Source: an uncultured Chthonomonas sp. (GTDB lineage Bacteria; Armatimonadota; Chthonomonadetes; Chthonomonadales; CAJBBX01). Taken from it: 26,972 nt of DNA. The stretch is taken from assembly GCA_903886985.1 (NCBI GenBank), contig CAISOI010000670.1:1-26972 (forward strand), read 5' to 3'. The translations under genes were made by a program, and so were the position numbers. Shown here one piece after another: positions 12,323-24,380 of this stretch (position 1 is the stretch's first letter; every line of letters begins with the position of its first letter). Below the pieces are notes generated by a model. The model saw only the letters and a list, made by a program, of their open reading frames with translations, was not told the origin of the DNA and made no database searches.

Positions 12323-13247
12323 GCAACACTCCTTGTGTGTCCGTAACTTCCTGTTCGCGATCCAATGGCATTTCAAACTCGGAGATCGACGGCAACGCGT
12401 TTTTGGCGAGTAGACCGGCAAACTCCGTATTAATTTTGTGGCCCGGGCGAATAGCAGTTATTGATGCAATAATCCGCCCACCGGCAAGGGACAAATCCCC
12501 AAAGAGATCCAAGATTTTGTGGTGTAAACACTCATTACGAACGCGTAGGTCACTAGAAAACCGATCTTGATAGACGATCAAAGCATTATCGAAATTGCCA
12601 CCCAGAGCCAATCCTTGACTTAGCAGCTTTTCGACTTCTTCCTGGAAACCAAAGGTTCTGGCGGGCGCAATTTGTGTTCTATATGTTTCAGCATCATCGT
12701 AAACGGTTTCGACCTGAGTGCCGAGCATAGGGTGGTCAAAATGAGTGATACAAGTTAGAGAAAATTCCTCCGCAGGAGTTGCAACAAGGTAGGAGTCGCC
12801 TCGTTTCAAAACTACTGTCTCCGCAAGCCGTATCAATTTAGAGGTGATTTCATACTGACATATTCCAGACTCCATGATCGCTTCCACCCACGGGCCGGCG
12901 CTGCCATCAAGTATCGGAAGCTCACTACCTTGAACTTCAATTAGGGCGTTGGTTACATTTAGTCCGTTTAATGCGGACAAAATGTGCTCTACCGTGGATA
13001 GATAGACTCCATCTACACCGATACAGGTTGCCCTGTCCGTGTGCAATACATTCTCATGACTTGCCGCAAATTCCGTGCTGCCAACCTTAAATCGGATACC
13101 AGAGTTCGCAGGTGCAGGCGACAAATGTACGACAGAATTCGTGCCGGAATGAATCCCTACTCCCGCCCGCTCTATACGATTGCAAAGGGTCGTCTGAAAG
13201 TACTTTTCGTGGGGATGAATATCGTAATCAAGCCTATGGAATGTCAT
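12309..13247 (-). CDS. lpxC: UDP-3-O-acyl-N-acetylglucosamine deacetylase
   Basis: QTTL, GVGIHSG, TVEHILSAL, PILDGSA, IAPARTFGF, ALGGNFDNA, HKILDLFGDL (Zn ligands), GHKIN. ATGA overlap with the lpxD stop. Confidence 0.97.
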   Translation of the reverse strand: MTFHRLDYDIHPHEKYFQTTLCNRIERAGVGIHSGTNSVVHLSPAPANSGIRFKVGSTEFAASHENVLHTDRATCIGVDGVYLSTVEHILSALNGLNVTNALIEVQGSELPILDGSAGPWVEAIMESGICQYEITSKLIRLAETVVLKRGDSYLVATPAEEFSLTCITHFDHPMLGTQVETVYDDAETYRTQIAPARTFGFQEEVEKLLSQGLALGGNFDNALIVYQDRFSSDLRVRNECLHHKILDLFGDLSLAGGRIIASITAIRPGHKINTEFAGLLAKNALPSISEFEMPLDREQEVTDTQGVLHAGY

Positions 13248-14386
13248 TCTGTTCCCGGGGGATCAAGTTTGCTCGCCAACTGGGCGACCAACTCTTGCAG
13301 TTTTTCGTTTTGTTCTTGTTGAAGAGCAACGACCTTTTCCAGCGCCAGCAGCCTTTTGCGGGTCTCTGGCATCTTATCCATCGCGGCCTCAACTCGCATC
13401 CGTTGCATATGCGGTCTTGCAGGATATCCCGAAACGACCTGTCCAGGCTCTATATCCCCAAAAACGGCCCCGCGCCCCATCACGACCACATTGTCACCTA
13501 TCGTAACGTGGTCCTTTGCACCCGATTGCCCTGCCATAATTACACTGTTTCCCAGCACTGAGCTGCCCGCAATTCCAACCTGAGCAACAATCACGCAGTC
13601 AGTCCCAATTTTAACATTATGAGCTATATGCACAAGGTTATCAATTTTTGTGCGTGCGCCGATCTTTGTACTGCCCGTCTTAGCGCGATCAATTGTGCTG
13701 CCCGCGCCCACTTCAACGTCGTCTTCAAGGACTACGATCCCGACCTGCGGAACCTTAACCCGGCGATTATCCATCAATAGATATCCGAAACCATCCGAAC
13801 CGATCACACATCCAGAATGCAAGATCACTCGGTCTCCAATCAACGCCCCGTGATTAACAGTGACGTTCGCATGGATCAAACACTCTTCGCCAATAACCGT
13901 GCCCTCGCCAATAAACGAGCCCCCCATGATCGTAGTTCCGTCGCCCACATTGACAAAATCGGCCAAAACTACGTTGGGACCAACACGAACACCTTCGCCT
14001 AAAACAATCTCTCGACCCAAAACTGCTGATGGGTGAACTCCAGGACCAATAGAAAGGGGGACATTAAATCGTTCCAGGATCTTCAGGAATGCAAACCGGG
14101 CGTTTTCCACTTTGATAAGGGGCTTGGACGATGAAATCTCGGCATTAGGAATAACTATAGCGATACAGTGCGATTTCTCAGCCTTAGCCAGAAACCGCTC
14201 ATTTTCAGCAAATACAATGTCCCCGTCGACAGCGTCTTCAATACTGGCGATGCCGCGAACTTTAGCATCTGAATCTCCAACTACTTCTCCGCCGACTAAA
14301 TCACCAATCTGCTGCAAGGTGAAAATGGGGGCGTGCCATTGAACAAACTCGGTTTCATCGCGCGTCTGTTCGGTCGGTTTGTTCAT
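13244..14386 (-). CDS. lpxD: UDP-3-O-(3-hydroxyacyl)glucosamine N-acyltransferase
   Basis: N-terminal uridine-binding domain, hexapeptide repeats, GSDGFGY, DRAKTG, KIDNLVHIAHN, GYPARP, C-terminal helical tail. Confidence 0.97.
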   Translation of the reverse strand: MNKPTEQTRDETEFVQWHAPIFTLQQIGDLVGGEVVGDSDAKVRGIASIEDAVDGDIVFAENERFLAKAEKSHCIAIVIPNAEISSSKPLIKVENARFAFLKILERFNVPLSIGPGVHPSAVLGREIVLGEGVRVGPNVVLADFVNVGDGTTIMGGSFIGEGTVIGEECLIHANVTVNHGALIGDRVILHSGCVIGSDGFGYLLMDNRRVKVPQVGIVVLEDDVEVGAGSTIDRAKTGSTKIGARTKIDNLVHIAHNVKIGTDCVIVAQVGIAGSSVLGNSVIMAGQSGAKDHVTIGDNVVVMGRGAVFGDIEPGQVVSGYPARPHMQRMRVEAAMDKMPETRKRLLALEKVVALQQEQNEKLQELVAQLASKLDPPGTE

Positions 14387-14474
14387 ACTGCTTCATTAAT
14401 CCTGTATTGCTGCACTGGCAACAACTCTTCGAGAATTTTGGTTGCACCAACTTATCCAATAGCCTTTATACCTT

Positions 14475-15611
14475 TTATTCCGCCAAATCTCTCCCCGAGA
14501 AATCTGCTGACAGCATGGAGACAACCTTGTCCGTAAAGTCGTTGCCTTTGTTAACTTCTACGTACGTCACCTTCCAATGATTCTTCAGGGCGATTCTATC
14601 CACGCGCCGCTGTAGGTCGCTCTTGATGAAAGCCAACATCTGGTCTCGCATCGCACTTCTTGAAGTTGTAGACGAATCAATTTTGGTGCTTTGCTTGAGG
14701 CTGGGACCCGTAATCTTCAAAGGCATTTGCGATACTTGTCGCATGTTCATCGGAGGACTTACATCCACGGGGTTCACCCTCTTGATTGCTGATGCACTTC
14801 CCAACATTCTTGATCTCACTGATTCCAACAGGACATCGCCCTCACGTCGAAGGGTTATCGAACGTTGTGTAAGAGTTTGCTCGATCACTGACTCCTTGGT
14901 CTGTTTATATTTCGCCAGGTTTTCGTCGAGCTGCGTGTTTTCTGCGAGTATTTGGCTCGGACGCAGTTTCTGTCTTAGGGAATCTATCTCTAAGTTAATT
15001 GCCGTCAATCGTTCAGTAATCGGTATTATCCCTGGAACAGTCAGTACCCTTGCGTTACTCTCTAAAGCAATCTGTTCTACAACCAATTTCCTCAACCTAT
15101 TTCTGATATCGGTGAAATCTTTCGATGGTACGTTCGGTGGTGGAATTGCAAGGAGCCTTACCCGCTCCTGCGCTAGATCTGTGACCAGCCTCTGCTGAAG
15201 GGTATGTCGCTCCCGATCTAATATTCGGCGGATGTGCTCTCGGTTTGAGTTTTCCAAAGTCGTAAGTCCGGCATTGTCTCCGATTGCGACAGACTCCGTA
15301 CCGATTGCTCCCTCCAATGTAGCTGGTTTTACTGGGGGCATAATGTCAGGAAAATTCAGCTTAACCTGAGTGTCGGTCAATTTCGTTCCCGATGAAGTTA
15401 GAGGGACTAAATCGCGCTTATCCATCGCTGTCACATCTGCGTATGCAGGATGAAGCGGCACCAATGCATTGAGTCTTACTTCGACAACAGTCAACCCAGC
15501 AGTATTTCTGGACGACGTAGCACGACATCCAGTAAGAAGAAGCAACGAGGCAAACCCGACGACGAAATGGGGAGCGCATGCGAATGCGCTCCCCATTTTT
15601 GACTTCAACAT
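14475..15611 (-). CDS. Uncharacterised putative lipoprotein with Skp/OmpH-like termini and long helical core
   Basis: ATG 4 nt after the skp stop gives MLKSK...FASLLLLTG/C (lipobox; Cys codon 15525-15527). C-terminal ...IALKNHWKV...DFTDKVV resembles the adjacent Skp ...VAESKNVAV...DITEAVL. Confidence refers to the ORF; function is inferred. Confidence 0.75.
   Translation of the reverse strand: MLKSKMGSAFACAPHFVVGFASLLLLTGCRATSSRNTAGLTVVEVRLNALVPLHPAYADVTAMDKRDLVPLTSSGTKLTDTQVKLNFPDIMPPVKPATLEGAIGTESVAIGDNAGLTTLENSNREHIRRILDRERHTLQQRLVTDLAQERVRLLAIPPPNVPSKDFTDIRNRLRKLVVEQIALESNARVLTVPGIIPITERLTAINLEIDSLRQKLRPSQILAENTQLDENLAKYKQTKESVIEQTLTQRSITLRREGDVLLESVRSRMLGSASAIKRVNPVDVSPPMNMRQVSQMPLKITGPSLKQSTKIDSSTTSRSAMRDQMLAFIKSDLQRRVDRIALKNHWKVTYVEVNKGNDFTDKVVSMLSADFSGRDLAE
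15565..15598. other. Perfect 15-bp inverted repeat (RNA hairpin) in the lipoprotein 5' coding region
   Basis: AAATGGGGAGCGCAT-GCGA-ATGCGCTCCCCATTT. Confidence 0.85.
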
Positions 15612-15615
15612 CAAA

Positions 15616-16263
15616 CTACTTTTTGTTAAGTTCTGCAAGTACGGCTTCTGTAATGTCGGTACCAGCATAAAGTGCAACTTCGCTGTTGAACACAACCGCG
15701 ACGTTTTTGGACTCTGCAACTTTACCAATAGTAGCGCGCACTTTCTTCATGAGGTCTTCCGATTTGCTATTGCCATACTGGGAAAGTTGGTTTGCAAGAT
15801 CTTCTTTAAGACTGGCAAATTTGCCCTGTGCTTCCTGAAAGATCTTGTCGGCTGCAGCCAATGTCGCTTTGTCAGCCGCATTCAAATCCTTCTCCGGTTT
15901 TTGCCGAATTGCTTGAATTTCGTCAGACTTCGTCTTTGCTTTACTTTCAATCGCGGTGATCTTCGCTTTGTCGGCATCGGTTTGCGGAGTCTTCTCGTAG
16001 ATCAAATCCAACTGCTTCTGCTCTTCTTCGGTCAAAAAAGGCATATTGTTTCGACGTTGGAGCTTGTCTTCATATTGCTTCTGCATCACTCGCAATTCCG
16101 CATCCACGGATTCCCTTGCTTTATATCCCGTGGATAACTTCTTGAAATCCACCGTTGCAAAAGTGCCGCCCGACTTACCCTGACCTGAAGCGCCAATAGC
16201 AACCGCAAGGCTCGTCACTATTGTCAACAGGGCCAGTAAGCGGACCCAGTTATTTTTCTGCAT
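15616..16263 (-). CDS. skp: Periplasmic OMP chaperone Skp/OmpH
   Basis: AAGGAG SD, signal peptide, FATVDFKKL, long K/E/Q helical region, KVAESKNVAVVF...GTDITEAVLAEL. Directly downstream of bamA. Confidence 0.92.
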   Translation of the reverse strand: MQKNNWVRLLALLTIVTSLAVAIGASGQGKSGGTFATVDFKKLSTGYKARESVDAELRVMQKQYEDKLQRRNNMPFLTEEEQKQLDLIYEKTPQTDADKAKITAIESKAKTKSDEIQAIRQKPEKDLNAADKATLAAADKIFQEAQGKFASLKEDLANQLSQYGNSKSEDLMKKVRATIGKVAESKNVAVVFNSEVALYAGTDITEAVLAELNKK

Positions 16264-16341
16264 GTAAGGCTCCTTATCTTATCTCGTGAATCAAAATTAC
16301 AAATTTTAATTATCGTGTTTCATCAGCGGTTAAATAGGAAA

Positions 16342-18210
16342 TCAAAACACATGTCCTATGCTGAAGTGTAGGTGTGCACCTTCACGCCCAAAACCTTCAT
16401 CAATTCGAATGGGCCCAATAGGTGTTACGACTCTTAGACCCACTCCAATACCGACCGAGGGACTAAATCCACTATGTTGTCGGAAGCCGTTAAAGGCCAC
16501 CTGCTCATAGTTACCACCCCAAGCATCTCCAACGTCAGTAAAGAGTACACCGGTTAGAGAGTTCGCAAGTGGATGCCGGAATTCAAAAGAGCCGAGCATC
16601 ATGTTGTTGCCCCAGAATCGGTCTTCGTTGTATCCACGAAGCGACTCCGCGCCACCAACAAAGAACTGTTCCGAGAAGGGAAGGCGACCATTTGCACTTC
16701 CCGCCATCAGCCTCAACGCAAATACCGTTCTCTTTTCCTTCGGGCTGGTCCTACGACCCTTTGGACTAAAGTAGGTACGCGTATCAAGGGATAGCTTCTC
16801 ATAAGTTAGATTGCCGTAGATACCGTTTGGTGTCACACCGTTGACAAGCACAGGGCTCAACTTCGCATGACCGAAATCGGTCGAGATTGTATCATAACGT
16901 CCGGCTGCAGGATCTTGATTGTAGTCTCTGGTATCACTGGCACCACGGATCGTAAGTACCTGAAGTGGACCATTCTGCAGGACCGCAGCATCCTGAATGT
17001 TCAAGCTGACAGACGGCACTCGGATATTGTCGTAACGCAATCCCGTGTAGAGTCTGAATGTATCTGTGATCGGTCGGCTAAGTGTCAGCTGGCCGCCCTG
17101 ATGAGTTTCGTAATAGTCGGTATTGTTTCCCGCCGTCGGAAGACCACCACTGCTCGAAATACTGTTTCCAAAACGATACACAACTTTGTCGTAAATGCTT
17201 ACAGAGAGCGTCGTGTGTTTCTTGTCGACCCATGGTTCTGTGAAATCGAGTTCAAGACTGTTTCTGTTTGCAAGACCGCCCGCTTCCCACATGAGGCTGA
17301 TCTGTTGGCCAAGACCCATCAAGTTGTTTTCGCCAACTTCCATTCGCCCAACAAGGTGGTTTCTGCTGCTATAGCCCACGGATGCACTGACGGTGCCAGT
17401 TCGCTTCTCTTCTACATTGAGTGTCAAGTCCACAACTCCCAAGGTAGGAGTCAGAATAGCAGGCTGAATGTCACTGAAGAGATCCGTATTGAACACACGC
17501 GTATAGGCTCGTTGCAACTTGGTAAGATTGTAATAGTCGCCCTGTTTGGTGTCGTAAAGTTCTCGTAGGATGACCTTAGGTTTTGTCTTTTTAAGCCCAT
17601 TCAACTTGATATTGCGAATTTTAGCGACAACTACGGGAACGTCCAGAATGCCATTTGTAACTCCAAAACCTTCTGGCGCGATTGCAGCCTGGAATCCTTT
17701 GGTCTTGTAGTAGTCTGTAATTCTCTCAATGTCTGCACGTAGAATGTTTAGGTTGAGAACCCGGTCGACCTTCGTCTGGAGTAAATCCTGAAGAACCTTT
17801 GGTTGAATGGGACCTGAACCCGTAATGTTGAAACCTTTTACGATATCGTTTTCGTCCACTTGAATAGTGACGACCGCTTCGTTGGTGGCTCTGTCGACAT
17901 CCGCAGCAATTTTGACTGCTTCATCAGGATTGTCGATGTGTCGCATACCAAAGTTTCCGGTGGAGACCAAGTTGCGCGCAGCGGTCTCAAGATCGGTCTT
18001 TGTGATTCCTTGACCCACTTTAAGTCCCGAAGCACCAAGGATTCCTTCACGGTTAAGTGCGCGGTTTCCCTTAACAACAATTTCTTTGATCTTGGGGGTT
18101 ATCTGCTGGGCACTGGCTCCCACCTGCAAGATAGAGATTGCCGTTATACCAAACAAAAATGATCTCAATATGTTAGAGCCAATACCGACTCTTGTTAAAG
18201 TGCAATTCAA
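16342..18210 (-). CDS. bamA: Omp85-family outer-membrane protein assembly factor with three POTRA domains
   Basis: Signal peptide, three POTRA-like repeats (IKEIVVKGN, VKGFNITGS, IRNIKLNGL), barrel from EKRTGTV, FFVGGAESLRGY lid motif, GVGLRVVTPIGPIRID, C-terminal Phe. GAGGTG SD with TTG start. Confidence 0.93.
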   Translation of the reverse strand: MNCTLTRVGIGSNILRSFLFGITAISILQVGASAQQITPKIKEIVVKGNRALNREGILGASGLKVGQGITKTDLETAARNLVSTGNFGMRHIDNPDEAVKIAADVDRATNEAVVTIQVDENDIVKGFNITGSGPIQPKVLQDLLQTKVDRVLNLNILRADIERITDYYKTKGFQAAIAPEGFGVTNGILDVPVVVAKIRNIKLNGLKKTKPKVILRELYDTKQGDYYNLTKLQRAYTRVFNTDLFSDIQPAILTPTLGVVDLTLNVEEKRTGTVSASVGYSSRNHLVGRMEVGENNLMGLGQQISLMWEAGGLANRNSLELDFTEPWVDKKHTTLSVSIYDKVVYRFGNSISSSGGLPTAGNNTDYYETHQGGQLTLSRPITDTFRLYTGLRYDNIRVPSVSLNIQDAAVLQNGPLQVLTIRGASDTRDYNQDPAAGRYDTISTDFGHAKLSPVLVNGVTPNGIYGNLTYEKLSLDTRTYFSPKGRRTSPKEKRTVFALRLMAGSANGRLPFSEQFFVGGAESLRGYNEDRFWGNNMMLGSFEFRHPLANSLTGVLFTDVGDAWGGNYEQVAFNGFRQHSGFSPSVGIGVGLRVVTPIGPIRIDEGFGREGAHLHFSIGHVF

Positions 18211-18317: not shown

Positions 18318-18896
18318 TTAATCTTGTCTGTAGTAAGGCTCGAGCTTGCGTCGGAGCATACCCCGCGCTCTGGAAAGACGCGTTTTGACATTATCTAACG
18401 AGAGACCCGTTACATCTGCAATTTCGTTGTAGGACAACCCTTGCAATTCACGCAAGACAACAACGGTTCTGTAGTCTGGAGCAAGGGATTGAACCGCATC
18501 CATAATTCGCTCGTGAAGCTCTTTTTCTTCGAGCAAAACGTGCGGGGCATAGCTGAGATCTGCTATTTCACGCTGCTGACCACTCTCCTCATTTTCCCAT
18601 GCCTTAGGCTGGTCCAACGAATCGACCGGAATTCGCCGCGCTCTGCTTCTCTGCCTGAGCCGATTTCTACAGTGATTAATCGCTATCTGGTAAATCCAAG
18701 TGTAAATCTGGGAATCACCCCGAAATCGAGAGAAGCCCTTAAATGCACTGATGAAAGTCTCTTGCGTTAGATCGGCCGCCTCCTCATAGTCCCCGAGAAT
18801 ACGGTAGATCACATTGAATATCTTCTTTTCATACATCACAACCAATTCGTCAAAAGCTATTGGCTGCTCAGAACCGCCTGCCGACGGATCGATCAT
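18318..18896 (-). CDS. ECF (group 4) RNA polymerase sigma factor, RpoE/SigW-like
   Basis: Region 2 (FDELVVMYEKKIF, AADLTQETF, FRGDSQIYTWIYQIAINHC) and region 4 (LAPDYRTVVVLRELQGLSYNEIA...VKTRLSRAR). 192 aa, no C-terminal extension. GAGGA SD. Confidence 0.95.
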   Translation of the reverse strand: MIDPSAGGSEQPIAFDELVVMYEKKIFNVIYRILGDYEEAADLTQETFISAFKGFSRFRGDSQIYTWIYQIAINHCRNRLRQRSRARRIPVDSLDQPKAWENEESGQQREIADLSYAPHVLLEEKELHERIMDAVQSLAPDYRTVVVLRELQGLSYNEIADVTGLSLDNVKTRLSRARGMLRRKLEPYYRQD

Positions 18897-19004: not shown

Positions 19005-22000
19005 CTAATATCTGAAGACGCCCTCGATGAGGTATGCGTTCGTTCTTTGATCATTAGATGTAAATGAAAATTGCAATTGGGGTCTAAATCTATAACTTAA
19101 TTTAAACTCCCATGCTGCGTCTGCAGCCGTTGAAGAGATTCCGTTAGCGCCAAAACGTCTCCAATAACCTGCGTACAGAGGTCCCTTTATCTGCCTCGTA
19201 GCACGTAGTGTAAATTCACTAAACTGACTCACATCCACTGTCAGTTCTTCAAATCCTAATGCTGAACTAAGTCCTAATTGATCCAAAAATTCAGGGAATA
19301 GACTTGCAGAGACGATCTCTGAAGCCTGTTGTCGCACCACGCGACCAAGGTCTGGATGGCTGTTAAACAGCCCTTGAATGGCACTCTCCCCGCCGAGTAT
19401 GCCCGTGACACGCCTCTGTAAGTCGGCTGTCCCAAATGCAAAATCAGGTGGGTCAGATCGGAAAGTTAATTTCAAGTTGCGTTCGCCGATGAGATTATTT
19501 GAAAACTGCCCACTATCGGCAAACTGTACTGGTCCAGAACTATTCAATGGACCATTTGCTTCCACCGTGATAGTATACCTTTTCTGCGATTTGGGGTCGC
19601 CCGAAGGGGATGCTGTGATTCTCGTTATTGCCGTGAGGTTCACAATCACTCCAAGAGTCGGGTCCGTCAAAGTGGCAACTGCACTGAACGGATAACGTAG
19701 GGTTACGGTCCCGCCCCGTTGGATGGTAAATCGTGAGGTCGGGAATGCTAGGACACCACTATCAATTGCCAGTGAACCGTTTATCTTTAACCTTCGGACG
19801 TCGCCACCTGCGAGGTCGCCCTGAAGCATGACGGGCTGACCTGGAACAGTGTGAATTGTTGCCGTAACCGGGGAAGCAACTATACGTACTTTATCTCCAA
19901 GATTAAAACGTACATCAAATGAAGGTTGAATGACTGCCGTAACGCCGGGAGTGCCGTTCCCAAAACTATCTGGAAGTCGCACATCAGCCTGCATAATGTC
20001 GATAGAACCCGCAATATGCGGATGAGTCAAACTACCGGTGATTACGATATCCGCGGACGTATCATTGGTGATAAATCGCGCTCCTACCAGACTTGGCAGA
20101 TCCTTCTCTGCAAACTGCAACTGCTTCGCTTGGATCCGGAGTGAAGTCTCTTCCGTACGTAATCGCGGTGGCCAAAAATGGATTGTGCTCGGGTCGTTTT
20201 CAAAAGACAGTTCGCCAGTAACGCGAATCGGCTCTTTGGTCCGAACGAGTTTTCGAGATTTAGAGTCAAGTATCTCCGTGAACGCCGTTGCATTCCGAAC
20301 TCGTACGCGATCCCCCGCGAAGTCCAAAGCCACATTGATTGCCCGCAGCTGGGTCGCCCGGTCTGGCAATCGAATCAAATCTGCATCTACAAGTGCTTCG
20401 CCATTAATGGAGGGTTGAAGCAGCGTGCCGGTGACAGTTACGTTCGCGGAAACCGTACCTTTTGCGTCTTCTTCACTTACCGTTAAGCCGTTCTTGTTCG
20501 GAATGACTGCAATGAGGTCAGTCAATTTCTGTTTTGGTACGCGAACAACAGCGTTCATTTCCGCGCCACCCGTATCCGCGGATGATTCTGGATCGAGCGT
20601 TATGTCTCCAGATGCATAGATCTGAAATTGTCGAGGATTCACTACGTGCTCACGGGGCCTAGTAAAATCAAGTTGTAGGGGGTCCGGCTCACGCATTGTA
20701 ATGCGTATGTCGCCCGCTTTGACGACCGCCTTACCATCCTGTAGTTGAATCTTAACCCGTGAAGTCTCTGCATTGGAAAGCCACAGCTCTCTTCCAGTTA
20801 CCACAGAATCGAAAGATACTCCCGAACTGTCCAGCCGTTTAACAGTCTGCTTTTGAGCTGCGCCTGCAATAAGCGGGTTGGTAATCCTTGGAGTTGTCGC
20901 AGCTGTGGTTGCAACGGTGGTAGCTAAAGTGGTCGATGCACTTACTGTGTTAGGGGGAGTATCCGCCGCAATGCGATTTGCCCGACGTTCGGGTCGTGGC
21001 AATTCTGTCTCGATCCATACGAGGTCCTTGACAGAAGCAGAAGCTGTTAGTGTTGGGTTGGCAATATCGCCTTCTGCTTCAATATGAAGACTCTCTGCAA
21101 CTCCAGAGACATCTCTCAAATAGGCTCTCCCAGGGAACCAACGCCCCAGCAACTCCAACGAAAGGTTATTGGTGTCAAAACTGGCAGTTACACTCTTCTG
21201 ATCCACAACAGAACCAATAGCACTAAAACTTGCCTCCCCCGAGCGAAGGATTGCGTTCTTGAGTGCGATTACATTAGTATTCCGATCAAAAGTGACATCG
21301 CCGTCAAACTGCTCAATTACATTTCCTTGAACCCGCGCATTGCGACTAGTCCAATTCAGATGCGTGAACAAGGAATCTATGAGACCACTCGTCTCAAAGT
21401 TCGCATTAACCACACCGTCCAACGGATCAGTAATCGGTTTCAACCATTCGGATGCCGTACCGGTTGGATTGCCGATGACATACGGGCTGTTTGCCAGAGC
21501 TAATCGCAATTCCTCAAATTGCAGACCAGCAATATTTCCATGGAGGTTGAGCCTTCGCGAGTTGAATTCATATTCAACGGCCGGCTCTCCGGTAGCAATG
21601 GAGGACGCAAGAATTTTGGAACCAAACCCGAATCCGTCAGAAGTCGCTTGATTGTTCTGAATGGAGAATATTGCCGGCGTATTTACCGAGAGTCCGTGCA
21701 GATCGCCAATCACAACCTTATTTAAAGTAAGTCCGTTGGTTGTTGCCTGAACTTCACCAGACAAACCTTGGACCTTTCCATCTACCATTTGCCCGGAAAT
21801 CTTTGCCGACACATCTACTTTTCCTTCCAGAAAGACATATTCCGAAACCGAAGGCTCGAACTCCGAAAGGTCTATCGTACTAATTGCGGTCTTGCCTTCG
21901 AATCGCAGATCTTTGGTGATATAACCGTTGCCGGTGATTCTCGACGGATTTTCAGTCACAGCGGAGTCTGCGTATCTAAGTGCAGAGATAGAATCGACAA

Positions 22001-24380
22001 AAAGCGTTCCATTTGCCGGCTGGGATTCATATCTCACGGAGATCAATAAATTTTTCAGATCGAAATCAGCGACTCTGGCAGCGTCAATCGAGATATTTGG
22101 CAGGGCAACAGATAGATTCGGCAAATATCCCGTAATGCGAATATCGCTTTTGGCAATTCCCTGAACATCTGCGTCAGAACCCAACAGATGCGCCACTTCG
22201 CCGATGCTGACATCCTTTAGTTGACCGCTCAGATCCAACATGGGTGAACGCCCCAATGGATTCCCAATCAATCCAGCCAAACTCAATGTCGACGGGAAGC
22301 GATAAGCAGATCCATCACTAACCTCAACACGGTCTCTGTTACCCTTTATCGTTAAAGCAGCATAATCAAAATGTAAATCCGGTGTCCCCAGCCCAAAGCC
22401 GGCAACCTTGCCATAGATCTGTGGGTCGGAAATAACTCCCGTAATATGTCCATCTCTGAGATAAACAGCACCTTCCAACTTCTTACTGCCGTTGGCACTC
22501 TGGATTTCCAACGGAAGCTCTATCATAGAGATGTTATCAGCATTGACGTTGAGATCCACTGTCTTATCATCAAGATCGTAGGTCCCCGTAATAACTGCGC
22601 GGCCCTTAGTGTCTTCAATGGAAACTGGTTGGACAGAGACTACGCCGTCCGCCAAATGCATGCGACCCTGAATCTTGGCAATTTGGTATTCCCCAAGTAC
22701 AAAATCATTCACAAATATTTGAGTATCGAGATCAGGTATCGAATCGTCAAAGTGCCCGCTCATATTTACATCTGCTGAAATATCACCGGACAACGAACTG
22801 GCAACTGCACTTCTATTTTTGACCGAACTTTTGCTTCCTTTTTGTGCCCAGTCCAAAACTTCTTGCTTAACTTTGGCAGGTAGGTCCGCTAACTGAAGGT
22901 GGTGGCTTCGAACAGCCATGGAATATGAAGACTTATCTCCTGCGAGTTTCAGGATTGTCTTTGCTTCTAAATCACCTCCATACGCCGGAGAATTAAAGTC
23001 CAGAGCAAGGTTCCCAGTCCGGTACACAGCATTCAAACGCACTTTCTTCAGTTGCCATTCGTGGTAGACCACTGCTGGCAAAACCCCCGATGCCGTGATC
23101 ATTGGGTCGCTAAAGGAACCCTCTCCGTGAATCTTTAAACTTGAAGAAAGGGCGGAGGAGATTCCATTTTTCAGGAATCCATGAACGAAAGCGTTGCTGT
23201 TCAATTCAAATGTCGGGTCAAGAAGGGATCCATGAAGCTGACCGTCAACGTCACCAACCGCCTCTACTTGTTTCGCTATTTCCGCTCGTTTTTCAAATCG
23301 CAGCAATTTGATAACACGCGTTAACGGAACCTGTTTTCCGCTAACATTTGCCTCGATCGCAGGATTTTTGAAATCTGTTACTATTCCGTCCGACTTAACC
23401 GCCGTTCCAGCAACCGTTGCCGATGCGGAATATTCGACCCTCTGATTAGAAACTCGGGTAGTTCCCTCTATATCTCTGATCGAATCGGTCATCTGCGGCA
23501 ACCTATATACCCCGCCGTTTATCCTTACAACGGTGTCGTACCAAGCAGAAACCTTCCTGTCCTTCGACACGGACCGTAACAAAGTGAAATGCCCATTTCC
23601 AATTCCTGCTTCAATGGATTGTTGCGGAGTAATAAATCGATTGAGCCCAGTCAAAGATAGATCATCTGCTTGAACTCGGAGAAAGAGCCGTTTAAGAGGC
23701 GGTTCATACGTGCCGAGGGCTTTGACAATTCGGACATGGTCCTTATCTCCCTTAGCAGTAACTTCCCAGGTGGTACTTCGATCACTGTCGAGATGTATAT
23801 GGCCATCAATCTGCTTTACATGTTCCGTAAATCGATCTGCAGGTCGTTTTACGTGGTGGGGCATCAGGTCATCTACGTAAGTCAAATCGCCGTTACGAAT
23901 ATTAACCGTCCCGACAGTAGGACGTCCTGGCTTTTGGGGCTTGGAGACAAATATATCGCCGAAATTCCAGTTGCCCGCTCTATCGCGCCGAATGCGCGCG
24001 ACGGGATCGATCACATCTATTACCCCAAAGACTGGCAGCTTCTTATCTTCTGAAAAGAGAATGCGCCGGATATCGAAGTCAAGGACGACTTGATGCGCTC
24101 GGATCAATTCCCCGCGATCTTCAAATTGTTTTCCTTCGGCAATGCGCACGTCTTCTATGAAGACATGTCCACCTGCGAATGTCACTTTGCCGATAGCGAC
24201 TTGACGACCGAGTGCGCGAGTAGCCTCTGCTTGCAGGATGAGGCCCATTTTTGATTCCGTTGATCGCCAGAAACGGTAAAGCATCCTGCCCGACAAAACC
24301 GTGATGGCCAACAGCGGAATAATCATTATTAGAAGCGATAAAATTCTTCGGGTAATTCTCATAAATAAAAAGGGCGACAA
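19005..24380 (-). CDS. tamB: TamB / AsmA-like envelope-spanning protein (DUF490-type C-terminus)
   Basis: 1791 aa with a single N-terminal TM helix, long amphipathic beta-strand repeats, and C-terminal beta-strands ending ...YLIEGVFRY. Lies upstream of bamA. Start is TTG 24380 (AGAGGAG SD) or ATG 24362. Confidence 0.85.
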   Translation of the reverse strand: MSPFLFMRITRRILSLLIMIIPLLAITVLSGRMLYRFWRSTESKMGLILQAEATRALGRQVAIGKVTFAGGHVFIEDVRIAEGKQFEDRGELIRAHQVVLDFDIRRILFSEDKKLPVFGVIDVIDPVARIRRDRAGNWNFGDIFVSKPQKPGRPTVGTVNIRNGDLTYVDDLMPHHVKRPADRFTEHVKQIDGHIHLDSDRSTTWEVTAKGDKDHVRIVKALGTYEPPLKRLFLRVQADDLSLTGLNRFITPQQSIEAGIGNGHFTLLRSVSKDRKVSAWYDTVVRINGGVYRLPQMTDSIRDIEGTTRVSNQRVEYSASATVAGTAVKSDGIVTDFKNPAIEANVSGKQVPLTRVIKLLRFEKRAEIAKQVEAVGDVDGQLHGSLLDPTFELNSNAFVHGFLKNGISSALSSSLKIHGEGSFSDPMITASGVLPAVVYHEWQLKKVRLNAVYRTGNLALDFNSPAYGGDLEAKTILKLAGDKSSYSMAVRSHHLQLADLPAKVKQEVLDWAQKGSKSSVKNRSAVASSLSGDISADVNMSGHFDDSIPDLDTQIFVNDFVLGEYQIAKIQGRMHLADGVVSVQPVSIEDTKGRAVITGTYDLDDKTVDLNVNADNISMIELPLEIQSANGSKKLEGAVYLRDGHITGVISDPQIYGKVAGFGLGTPDLHFDYAALTIKGNRDRVEVSDGSAYRFPSTLSLAGLIGNPLGRSPMLDLSGQLKDVSIGEVAHLLGSDADVQGIAKSDIRITGYLPNLSVALPNISIDAARVADFDLKNLLISVRYESQPANGTLFVDSISALRYADSAVTENPSRITGNGYITKDLRFEGKTAISTIDLSEFEPSVSEYVFLEGKVDVSAKISGQMVDGKVQGLSGEVQATTNGLTLNKVVIGDLHGLSVNTPAIFSIQNNQATSDGFGFGSKILASSIATGEPAVEYEFNSRRLNLHGNIAGLQFEELRLALANSPYVIGNPTGTASEWLKPITDPLDGVVNANFETSGLIDSLFTHLNWTSRNARVQGNVIEQFDGDVTFDRNTNVIALKNAILRSGEASFSAIGSVVDQKSVTASFDTNNLSLELLGRWFPGRAYLRDVSGVAESLHIEAEGDIANPTLTASASVKDLVWIETELPRPERRANRIAADTPPNTVSASTTLATTVATTAATTPRITNPLIAGAAQKQTVKRLDSSGVSFDSVVTGRELWLSNAETSRVKIQLQDGKAVVKAGDIRITMREPDPLQLDFTRPREHVVNPRQFQIYASGDITLDPESSADTGGAEMNAVVRVPKQKLTDLIAVIPNKNGLTVSEEDAKGTVSANVTVTGTLLQPSINGEALVDADLIRLPDRATQLRAINVALDFAGDRVRVRNATAFTEILDSKSRKLVRTKEPIRVTGELSFENDPSTIHFWPPRLRTEETSLRIQAKQLQFAEKDLPSLVGARFITNDTSADIVITGSLTHPHIAGSIDIMQADVRLPDSFGNGTPGVTAVIQPSFDVRFNLGDKVRIVASPVTATIHTVPGQPVMLQGDLAGGDVRRLKINGSLAIDSGVLAFPTSRFTIQRGGTVTLRYPFSAVATLTDPTLGVIVNLTAITRITASPSGDPKSQKRYTITVEANGPLNSSGPVQFADSGQFSNNLIGERNLKLTFRSDPPDFAFGTADLQRRVTGILGGESAIQGLFNSHPDLGRVVRQQASEIVSASLFPEFLDQLGLSSALGFEELTVDVSQFSEFTLRATRQIKGPLYAGYWRRFGANGISSTAADAAWEFKLSYRFRPQLQFSFTSNDQRTNAYLIEGVFRY

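Follow-up and report, generated by a model that had tools for sequence, protein, structure and literature searches.

What kind of protein is encoded by the unannotated gene that stands between skp and lpxD in the outer-membrane gene cluster of the Armatimonadota? This question was raised by a stretch of 26,972 nucleotides (nt) from an uncultured Chthonomonas sp. (contig CAISOI010000670.1 of assembly GCA_903886985.1, positions 1 to 26,972; this whole stretch is referred to as the window), in which the gene codes for a protein of 378 amino acids (aa), here P0001. The original prediction, made from the sequence, had described P0001 as an elongated, lipobox-bearing relative of the chaperone Skp encoded next to skp itself, and this description is borne out by the lipobox, the layout of the structural model and a profile match at the C-terminus. 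On balance we favor, if only by a modest degree of confidence, the reading that P0001 is a divergent Skp paralogue within the OmpH superfamily, long-armed and membrane-tethered, which would act as a holdase beside the soluble Skp. As such it is probably a membrane-tethered variant of Skp, not a new kind of machine. The gene and the segments of its product are located in the window as follows.

14475 to 15611, minus strand: the unannotated gene for P0001 (378 aa), an uninterrupted frame with its stop codon at 14475-14477.
15528 to 15611, minus strand: lipoprotein signal peptide, residues 1-28 (MLKSKMGSAFACAPHFVVGFASLLLLTG), with the lipobox L-T-G-C.
15525 to 15527, minus strand: Cys29, the predicted lipid-modified first mature residue in a conserved alignment column, followed by Arg at position +2.
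15408 to 15500, minus strand: N-terminal body segment, residues 38-68, with strand 41-45 (VVEVR), the L..HP.W motif and a short helix (predicted local distance difference test score, pLDDT, about 97; strand from DSSP).
15300 to 15407, minus strand: proline-rich low-confidence linker, residues 69-104, poorly conserved and with five prolines (pLDDT below 50 over 71-87).
14787 to 15299, minus strand: helical arms, residues 105-275 (pLDDT mostly 88-98).
14682 to 14786, minus strand: second proline-rich, basic linker, residues 276-310, with five prolines and an isoelectric point (pI) of 11.2 (pLDDT below 50 over 289-310).
14478 to 14681, minus strand: C-terminal body segment, residues 311-378, homologous to Skp by hhalign.

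Comparison of sequence profiles, in which a 47-sequence alignment of the P0001 family was set against 68 Skp sequences of the phylum with hhalign, shows homology between the C-terminal segment of P0001 and its counterpart in the Skp body. Residues 311-378 matched the Skp C-terminus with 94.9% probability (P 4.8e-8, score 40.1), while the reversed Skp alignment scored 10.8 and 59 column-shuffled alignments reached at most 11.5. When the same residues were offered the whole of mature Skp, they aligned to positions 127-197 of 199 (P 4.2e-7). The whole mature P0001 family and the whole mature Skp were colinear (78% probability, P 1.8e-5; the reversed control scored 18.5), and this whole-protein support had risen from 35% to 63% and then to 78% with the inclusion of more diverse members, as true remote homology behaves. 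Scores from the -norealign and -glob modes of hhalign, which were inflated even for reversed controls, were not used. At the other end of the protein, residues 30-72 gave an in-register match to the Skp N-terminus with a score of 13.5 (P 0.005, 7% probability; 60 shuffles at most 8.3), in which 'V-R-L..L' was placed on 'V-D-f.K.' of Skp. The earlier proposal that both ends of P0001 echo those of Skp accordingly stands for the C-terminus, which lies far over its controls, and in a weaker though in-register form for the N-terminus. The Pfam family matched by the most family members was PF03938 (OmpH; 6 of 34), with every match below threshold (best 21.3 bits versus 32.4), and in four members (P0030, P0035, P0037 and P0040; E 3e-4 to 0.1) the protein C-terminus fell on the C-terminus of the PF03938 model. 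Pfam and NCBIfam scans of P0001 yielded nothing relevant.

A single-chain AlphaFold2 model built with a 34-sequence alignment (mean pLDDT 79.9) consists of strand 41-45, helices 47-53, 57-68, 105-155, 164-189, 195-275 and 311-343, strand 346-350 and helix 360-371, with proline-containing breaks between helices at 69-104, 156-163, 190-194 and 276-310. Since the two strands are the only ones in the model and DSSP assigns strands only to hydrogen-bonded partners, strands 41-45 and 346-350 must pair with each other. The two ends of the protein thereby come together in a small body with the helices protruding from it, a layout that corresponds to that of Skp at about double the size, and the paired strands enclose about 240 residues of long helices together with the two proline-rich linkers. 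Within the arms, helices 105-155 and 164-189 run outward and helix 195-275 returns, with breaks at IPPPNVPS and LTVPG. The C-terminal segment is made up of helix 311-343 (D..RRV.RIA), strand 346-350 (KVTYV), a loop and the D-x-T helix 360-371. When the C-terminal 73 residues were modelled alone the strand was lost, which is expected if the N-terminal partner is required. In the family alignment, L50, H54, P55 and T360 are invariant and W57, D332, A341, W346 and D358 nearly so; conservation is organized in three blocks comprising the G-C lipobox, V-R-L-x-A-L-L-P-L-H-P-A-W directly after it, and a C-terminal block of D-x-x-R-R-V-x-R-I-A-x-x-x-x-W, a short strand and D-x-T-x-x-x-A-x-x-L. The original prediction had also described heptad-like helices broken by proline-rich linkers. 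The model contains the helices and their proline breaks, but the heptad part did not hold up, as no helix, compared with shuffles, had a significant hydrophobic period of 3.3-3.8 residues; the helices are polar. Arm 1 and arm 2 compared with each other gave scores no better than reversed controls. Mature P0001 has a pI of 9.75 (family median 9.8) and is basic like E. coli Skp.

P0001 is predicted to be lipid-anchored, and in this respect would not be soluble like Skp. The frame without stops begins with an n-region rich in K, followed by 16 hydrophobic residues that lead into LLTG|C29, so that the earlier description of a 378-aa lipobox protein is upheld, and all 29 family sequences with a complete N-terminus retain the G-C pair of the lipobox. 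Of 14 distant loci outside the immediate relatives, nine have a clear lipobox, one an ambiguous one and the remaining four a hydrophobic N-terminus of non-lipobox type. Genes for the envelope machinery were surveyed in five genomes, namely this one (G000) and its relatives G027, G008, G006 and G201, four of the five being at least 95% complete. Here lspA and lgt adjoin each other at G000:C531:3370-4649, as they do in the four relatives; with both present, lipoproteins can be made. No match to LolCE reached the cut-off in the five genomes and LolA was found in only one of them, as a partial match, which means that either membrane may hold the lipid anchor. Asp at position +2 occurs in no family member, and the E. 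coli sorting rules based on the +2 residue may not apply in this organism.

The gene lies in a co-oriented series on the minus strand of the window that reads tamB-like gene, ECF (extracytoplasmic function) sigma factor gene, bamA, skp, P0001 gene, lpxD, lpxC, fabZ, lpxA, lpxB and msbA. The closest neighbors and the genes further upstream are these.

19005 to 24380, minus strand: tamB-like gene.
18318 to 18896, minus strand: ECF sigma factor gene, between tamB and bamA.
16342 to 18210, minus strand: bamA (622 aa), upstream, with a BLASTP label that is consistent across the loci of the phylum.
15616 to 16263, minus strand: skp (215 aa), 4 nt upstream of the P0001 gene and presumed to be its parent paralogue (PF03938 E 1e-13, 52 bits versus a cut-off of 32.4).
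13244 to 14386, minus strand: lpxD (380 aa), downstream.

The ATG of P0001 follows the skp stop codon (15616) by 4 nt, and lpxD starts 88 nt beyond the stop of P0001. An alternative TTG start at 15728 was rejected; it would overlap skp by 113 nt, and the homologues start at the signal peptide. The upstream neighbor is Skp, as had been stated, and it is the sole OmpH match over the cut-off in the genome. Each genome searched had one such canonical match, every time adjoining a P0001 relative. Two sub-threshold OmpH matches were located elsewhere, at G000:C794:9702-9959 (20 bits, in an open reading frame (ORF) of 532 aa) and G027:C1:544273-544614 (25 bits, 244 aa); to judge from their sequences, these could be further diverged Skp-like proteins.

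The placement of the gene, for which a survey of relatives had been suggested earlier, is kept across the phylum. The order skp, P0001-type gene, lpxD was observed in 11 of 12 loci of the organism's own order, and all 11 loci that belong to other Armatimonadota families have the slot between skp and lpxD filled. In most of the latter the complete series tamB, sigma factor, bamA, skp, P0001-type gene, lpxD, lpxC, fabZ, lpxA and lpxB is present, the exceptions being L030 (no labelled sigma factor) and L033 (no labelled skp). Even in five families that were missed by the family profile, an ORF of 233-490 aa is nonetheless found in the slot. Three of these (L039-L041) gave weak matches to the family hidden Markov model and have plainly Skp-like ends, e.g. 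VDITKDV..L and '...HGAVDITKDVARELKK'. The slot ORFs of the other two, L037:1916-2614 (233 aa) and L038:1849-2598 (250 aa), resemble neither the family nor Skp at a detectable level and, as far as their sequences go, may be a degenerate or replaced version. Two lineages of the phylum, at L040:3234-5919 and L041:3722-6086, carry two ordinary skp genes as well as the long form, amounting to three Skp-type genes between bamA and lpxD. The ECF sigma factor gene, which lies at 18318-18896 in the window, stands between tamB and bamA in 9 of the 11 other-family loci (L025-L035), and with its position kept to this extent it is a fixed part of the outer-membrane cluster and not a local insertion.

A phmmer search over all 1.84 billion representatives returned only 38 relatives, each full-length and 327-410 aa long, and the NCBI names of family members are Chthonomonadaceae and Chthonomonadales. 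The source names of the relatives read 'hypothetical protein' throughout, save for a stray phage Gam label; this IMG name, 'phage host-nuclease inhibitor protein Gam', is borne by P0094 and P0095 of the P0021 cluster and looks like a spurious coiled-coil annotation. A related-loci search returned no relatives with P0001 as query and only chance Sulfurimonas matches with BamA, while a profile search of the 5.8-billion set returned so many candidates that nothing was gained from it. A 34-member profile matched 143 of 301 Armatimonadota genomes and was nearly complete in the organism's own order (f1 16/16, f3 21/22, f2 1/1), and the gene is carried by several complete, few-contig genomes of the phylum, G027 among them. 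Four profile matches contain an in-frame TAG, three of them (G014:C116:53748-54794, G020:C201:25827-26876 and G022:C187:10919-11965) in all three genomes of one genus and the fourth at G028:C1:375500-376600. This codon may simply be the stop of the preceding skp, taken in at the margin of the match, or it may be a real interruption. The P0001 gene is real and under purifying selection, with ratios of nonsynonymous to synonymous substitution rates (dN/dS) of 0.24 and 0.25 in two congeneric pairs, compared with 0.04-0.06 for the adjacent skp.

A number of results weigh against P0001 being a Skp paralogue that acts as a holdase. The similarity of its N-terminus to Skp is weak, P0001 itself does not match PF03938 even at E values up to 10, and BLASTP of P0001 versus the neighboring Skp found nothing (E 6.3), so that the echo of Skp is visible at the profile level only. 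The arms matched the Skp arms no better than reversed controls, and, with the comparison between the two arms at control level as well, neither arm homology nor an internal duplication can be claimed. Searches of PDB sequences returned no Skp with the whole-family profile and nothing with the C-terminal profile, and Foldseek and VIA-align gave generic long-helix matches for the full model and only generic helical ones for the C-terminal fragment (best VIA-align Z 4.9), with no Skp structure (1SG2 and 1U2M for E. coli Skp, or HlpA/OmpH) in either case. The P0001 gene is evolving at about five times the rate of skp, a pace that would allow its function to have changed, nor do all members of the phylum have the lipobox, which is missing from 4 of the 14 distant loci.

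If P0001 is nevertheless such a paralogue, its gene would most likely have arisen by tandem duplication of skp early in the Armatimonadota. The copy would have retained both body-forming terminal segments of Skp, namely the N-terminal strand and the C-terminal helix, strand and 'D-x-T' helix, while the arms were extended to about 170 residues, corresponding to an out-and-back hairpin of about 80 residues that would measure about 12 nm if straight (an estimate at 1.5 Å per residue). Two flexible proline-rich linkers would have been inserted, joining the arms to the body, and the ordinary Skp signal peptide exchanged for a lipoprotein signal, whereby an N-terminal lipid would tether P0001 to a membrane. 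The protein would oligomerize through its Skp-like body, and the long basic arms could cage unfolded outer-membrane proteins as a holdase, or reach out to them, on their way from Sec to BamA. A bolder extension, which we regard as unlikely, is that arms of about 12 nm bridge much of the periplasm and that P0001, perhaps in mixed oligomers with soluble Skp, serves as a fixed point of hand-over from the Sec exit to BamA/TamB in a phylum where neither BamD nor a canonical LolA or LolCE came up in the five genomes searched.

Among the alternatives to a tethered holdase, an accessory lipoprotein of the β-barrel assembly machinery (BAM) or of the translocation and assembly module (TAM) survives best, albeit as an improbable one. 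P0001 would then be a fixed membrane partner of BamA (or TamB) in the place of BamD or BamB-E, not a free holdase, and its Skp-derived body would serve assembly only. This would suit the gene's place in a co-oriented unit that also includes tamB, bamA and skp, where no terminator-like site was found within 14200-16500, as well as the lipid anchor, which all BAM accessory proteins have, and the fact that no BamD over the cut-off was found in the five genomes (PF13525 none; TIGR03302 best 35.9 bits versus 81.4). Neither P0001 nor any family member, however, matched the BAM lipoprotein families of Pfam and NCBIfam, PF13525 and TIGR03302 included, and, with no canonical LolA or LolCE found, P0001 may not be targeted to the outer membrane. 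Moreover, BAM lipoproteins are poorly conserved beyond the Proteobacteria and absent in diderm Firmicutes, which assemble their outer-membrane proteins without them (PMC5007114), so their absence demands no substitute. The original prediction had further suggested that P0001 could take the place of SurA or PpiD. This candidate role was rejected, as SurA_N_3 proteins over the Pfam cut-off, of about 580 aa (PpiD-like in size) and about 360 aa (SurA-like in size), are encoded separately, elsewhere in this genome and in the four relatives, and make such a substitution unnecessary.

Somewhat more doubtful is a structural spacer or tether, i.e. an oligomeric, lipid-anchored helical rod that spans a periplasmic distance in the manner of Braun's lipoprotein (Lpp) and employs the Skp-type body as an oligomerization module only. 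The long helices, the lipid anchor and the predicted oligomerization body would all fit such a rod, as would a middle part that evolves fast while the length stays at about 360-430 aa. Without heptad periodicity, on the other hand, a tight coiled-coil rod is not indicated; there is neither a conserved C-terminal Lys nor a peptidoglycan-binding domain, and the modelled helices return to the body as a hairpin, so that both ends would be at the same membrane.

We consider it very unlikely that P0001 handles lipids, with apolipoprotein-like amphipathic helices binding lipid A precursors, lipopolysaccharide (LPS) or phospholipid. The strongest PDB match of the family profile was to apolipoprotein A-I chains (E about 6e-5) and covered helices 200-280 (window about 14772-15014), the gene stands at the head of the lipid A genes lpxD-lpxC-fabZ-lpxA-lpxB-msbA, and E. 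coli Skp has been reported to bind LPS. The apolipoprotein A-I match is nonetheless limited to polar helical repeats; like the coiled-coil matches in the PDB, it is most simply explained by composition (polar amphipathic repeats) and probably has that origin, and the Pfam apolipoprotein model, PF01442, reached only E 0.36 in a single family member. The position is no argument for lipid handling either, since ordinary Skp likewise adjoins lpxD in most diderms. Equally slight is the chance that P0001 is an unrelated helical lipoprotein whose ends resemble Skp by convergence or accident: its own lack of a PF03938 match, the absence of a structural match to Skp and the unrelated arms speak for this, but the C-terminal profile match (P 5e-8) lies far above controls and in the right place and order, the sub-threshold OmpH matches of several members provide independent support, the ends of distant members are more Skp-like, and extra skp copies occupy the same position in other phyla (PMC5007114).

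The family bears on a poorly known subject, as outer-membrane protein assembly has been little explored beyond the Proteobacteria, and BamA, TamB and Skp occur without any of the BAM lipoproteins in many deep-branching diderms. P0001 and its relatives, a phylum-wide family that still awaits a name from annotators, are a concrete candidate for how such diderms organize chaperoning at the membrane, and cultured relatives appear to exist, which should make the idea testable. Should a fixed hand-over point of this kind exist, its chaperone architecture would be one for which the model diderms offer no studied parallel.

Compared with Skp itself, P0001 is likewise exported to the periplasm and encoded after bamA and before lpxD; its model has a Skp-like order of N-terminal strand and C-terminal helix-strand-helix around long helical arms, and it shares the basic character and the C-terminal profile homology. 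It differs in its mature length of about 350 aa (Skp about 140-190 aa), in arms that are roughly twice as long and unrelated in sequence, in its two proline-rich linkers, in a lipobox in place of the signal-peptidase-I site and in lying below the Pfam threshold. PpiD and YfgM are membrane-anchored periplasmic chaperones, and P0001 would be analogous to them as an N-terminally anchored holdase if its lipid stays in the cytoplasmic membrane, whereas fold and family are unrelated. Lpp forms a short trimeric coiled coil built on heptads and is linked to peptidoglycan through a C-terminal Lys; P0001, at 350 aa, has neither heptad periodicity nor a conserved Lys at that end. Closer in gene order are the diderm Firmicutes (Negativicutes and Halanaerobiales), which carry up to three skp copies after bamA and no BamB-E (Antunes et al. 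2016, PMC5007114; Veillonella parvula outer-membrane proteome, PMC5491611). Like P0001, these copies represent extra Skp-type genes in a tamB-bamA-skp cluster of a lineage without recognizable BamB-E, but as described they belong to the recognizable OmpH family, whereas P0001 is unseen by Pfam, of double length and predicted to be lipidated. The outer-membrane proteome of Bacteroides fragilis lists a Skp-like lipoprotein of 198 aa, BF9343_2991 (PMC4319957), which resembles P0001 in being a Skp-like lipoprotein, a likeness drawn from its description only, but has the size of an ordinary Skp and belongs to another phylum. With several copies of skp behind bamA and a lipoprotein resembling Skp already on record (PMC5007114, PMC5491611, PMC4319957), the word 'novel' in the original prediction was too strong. 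What sets the family apart from the known forms of Skp, as judged from sequence, is that it is invisible to Pfam, double in length, usually lipidated by prediction and fixed throughout the phylum Armatimonadota.

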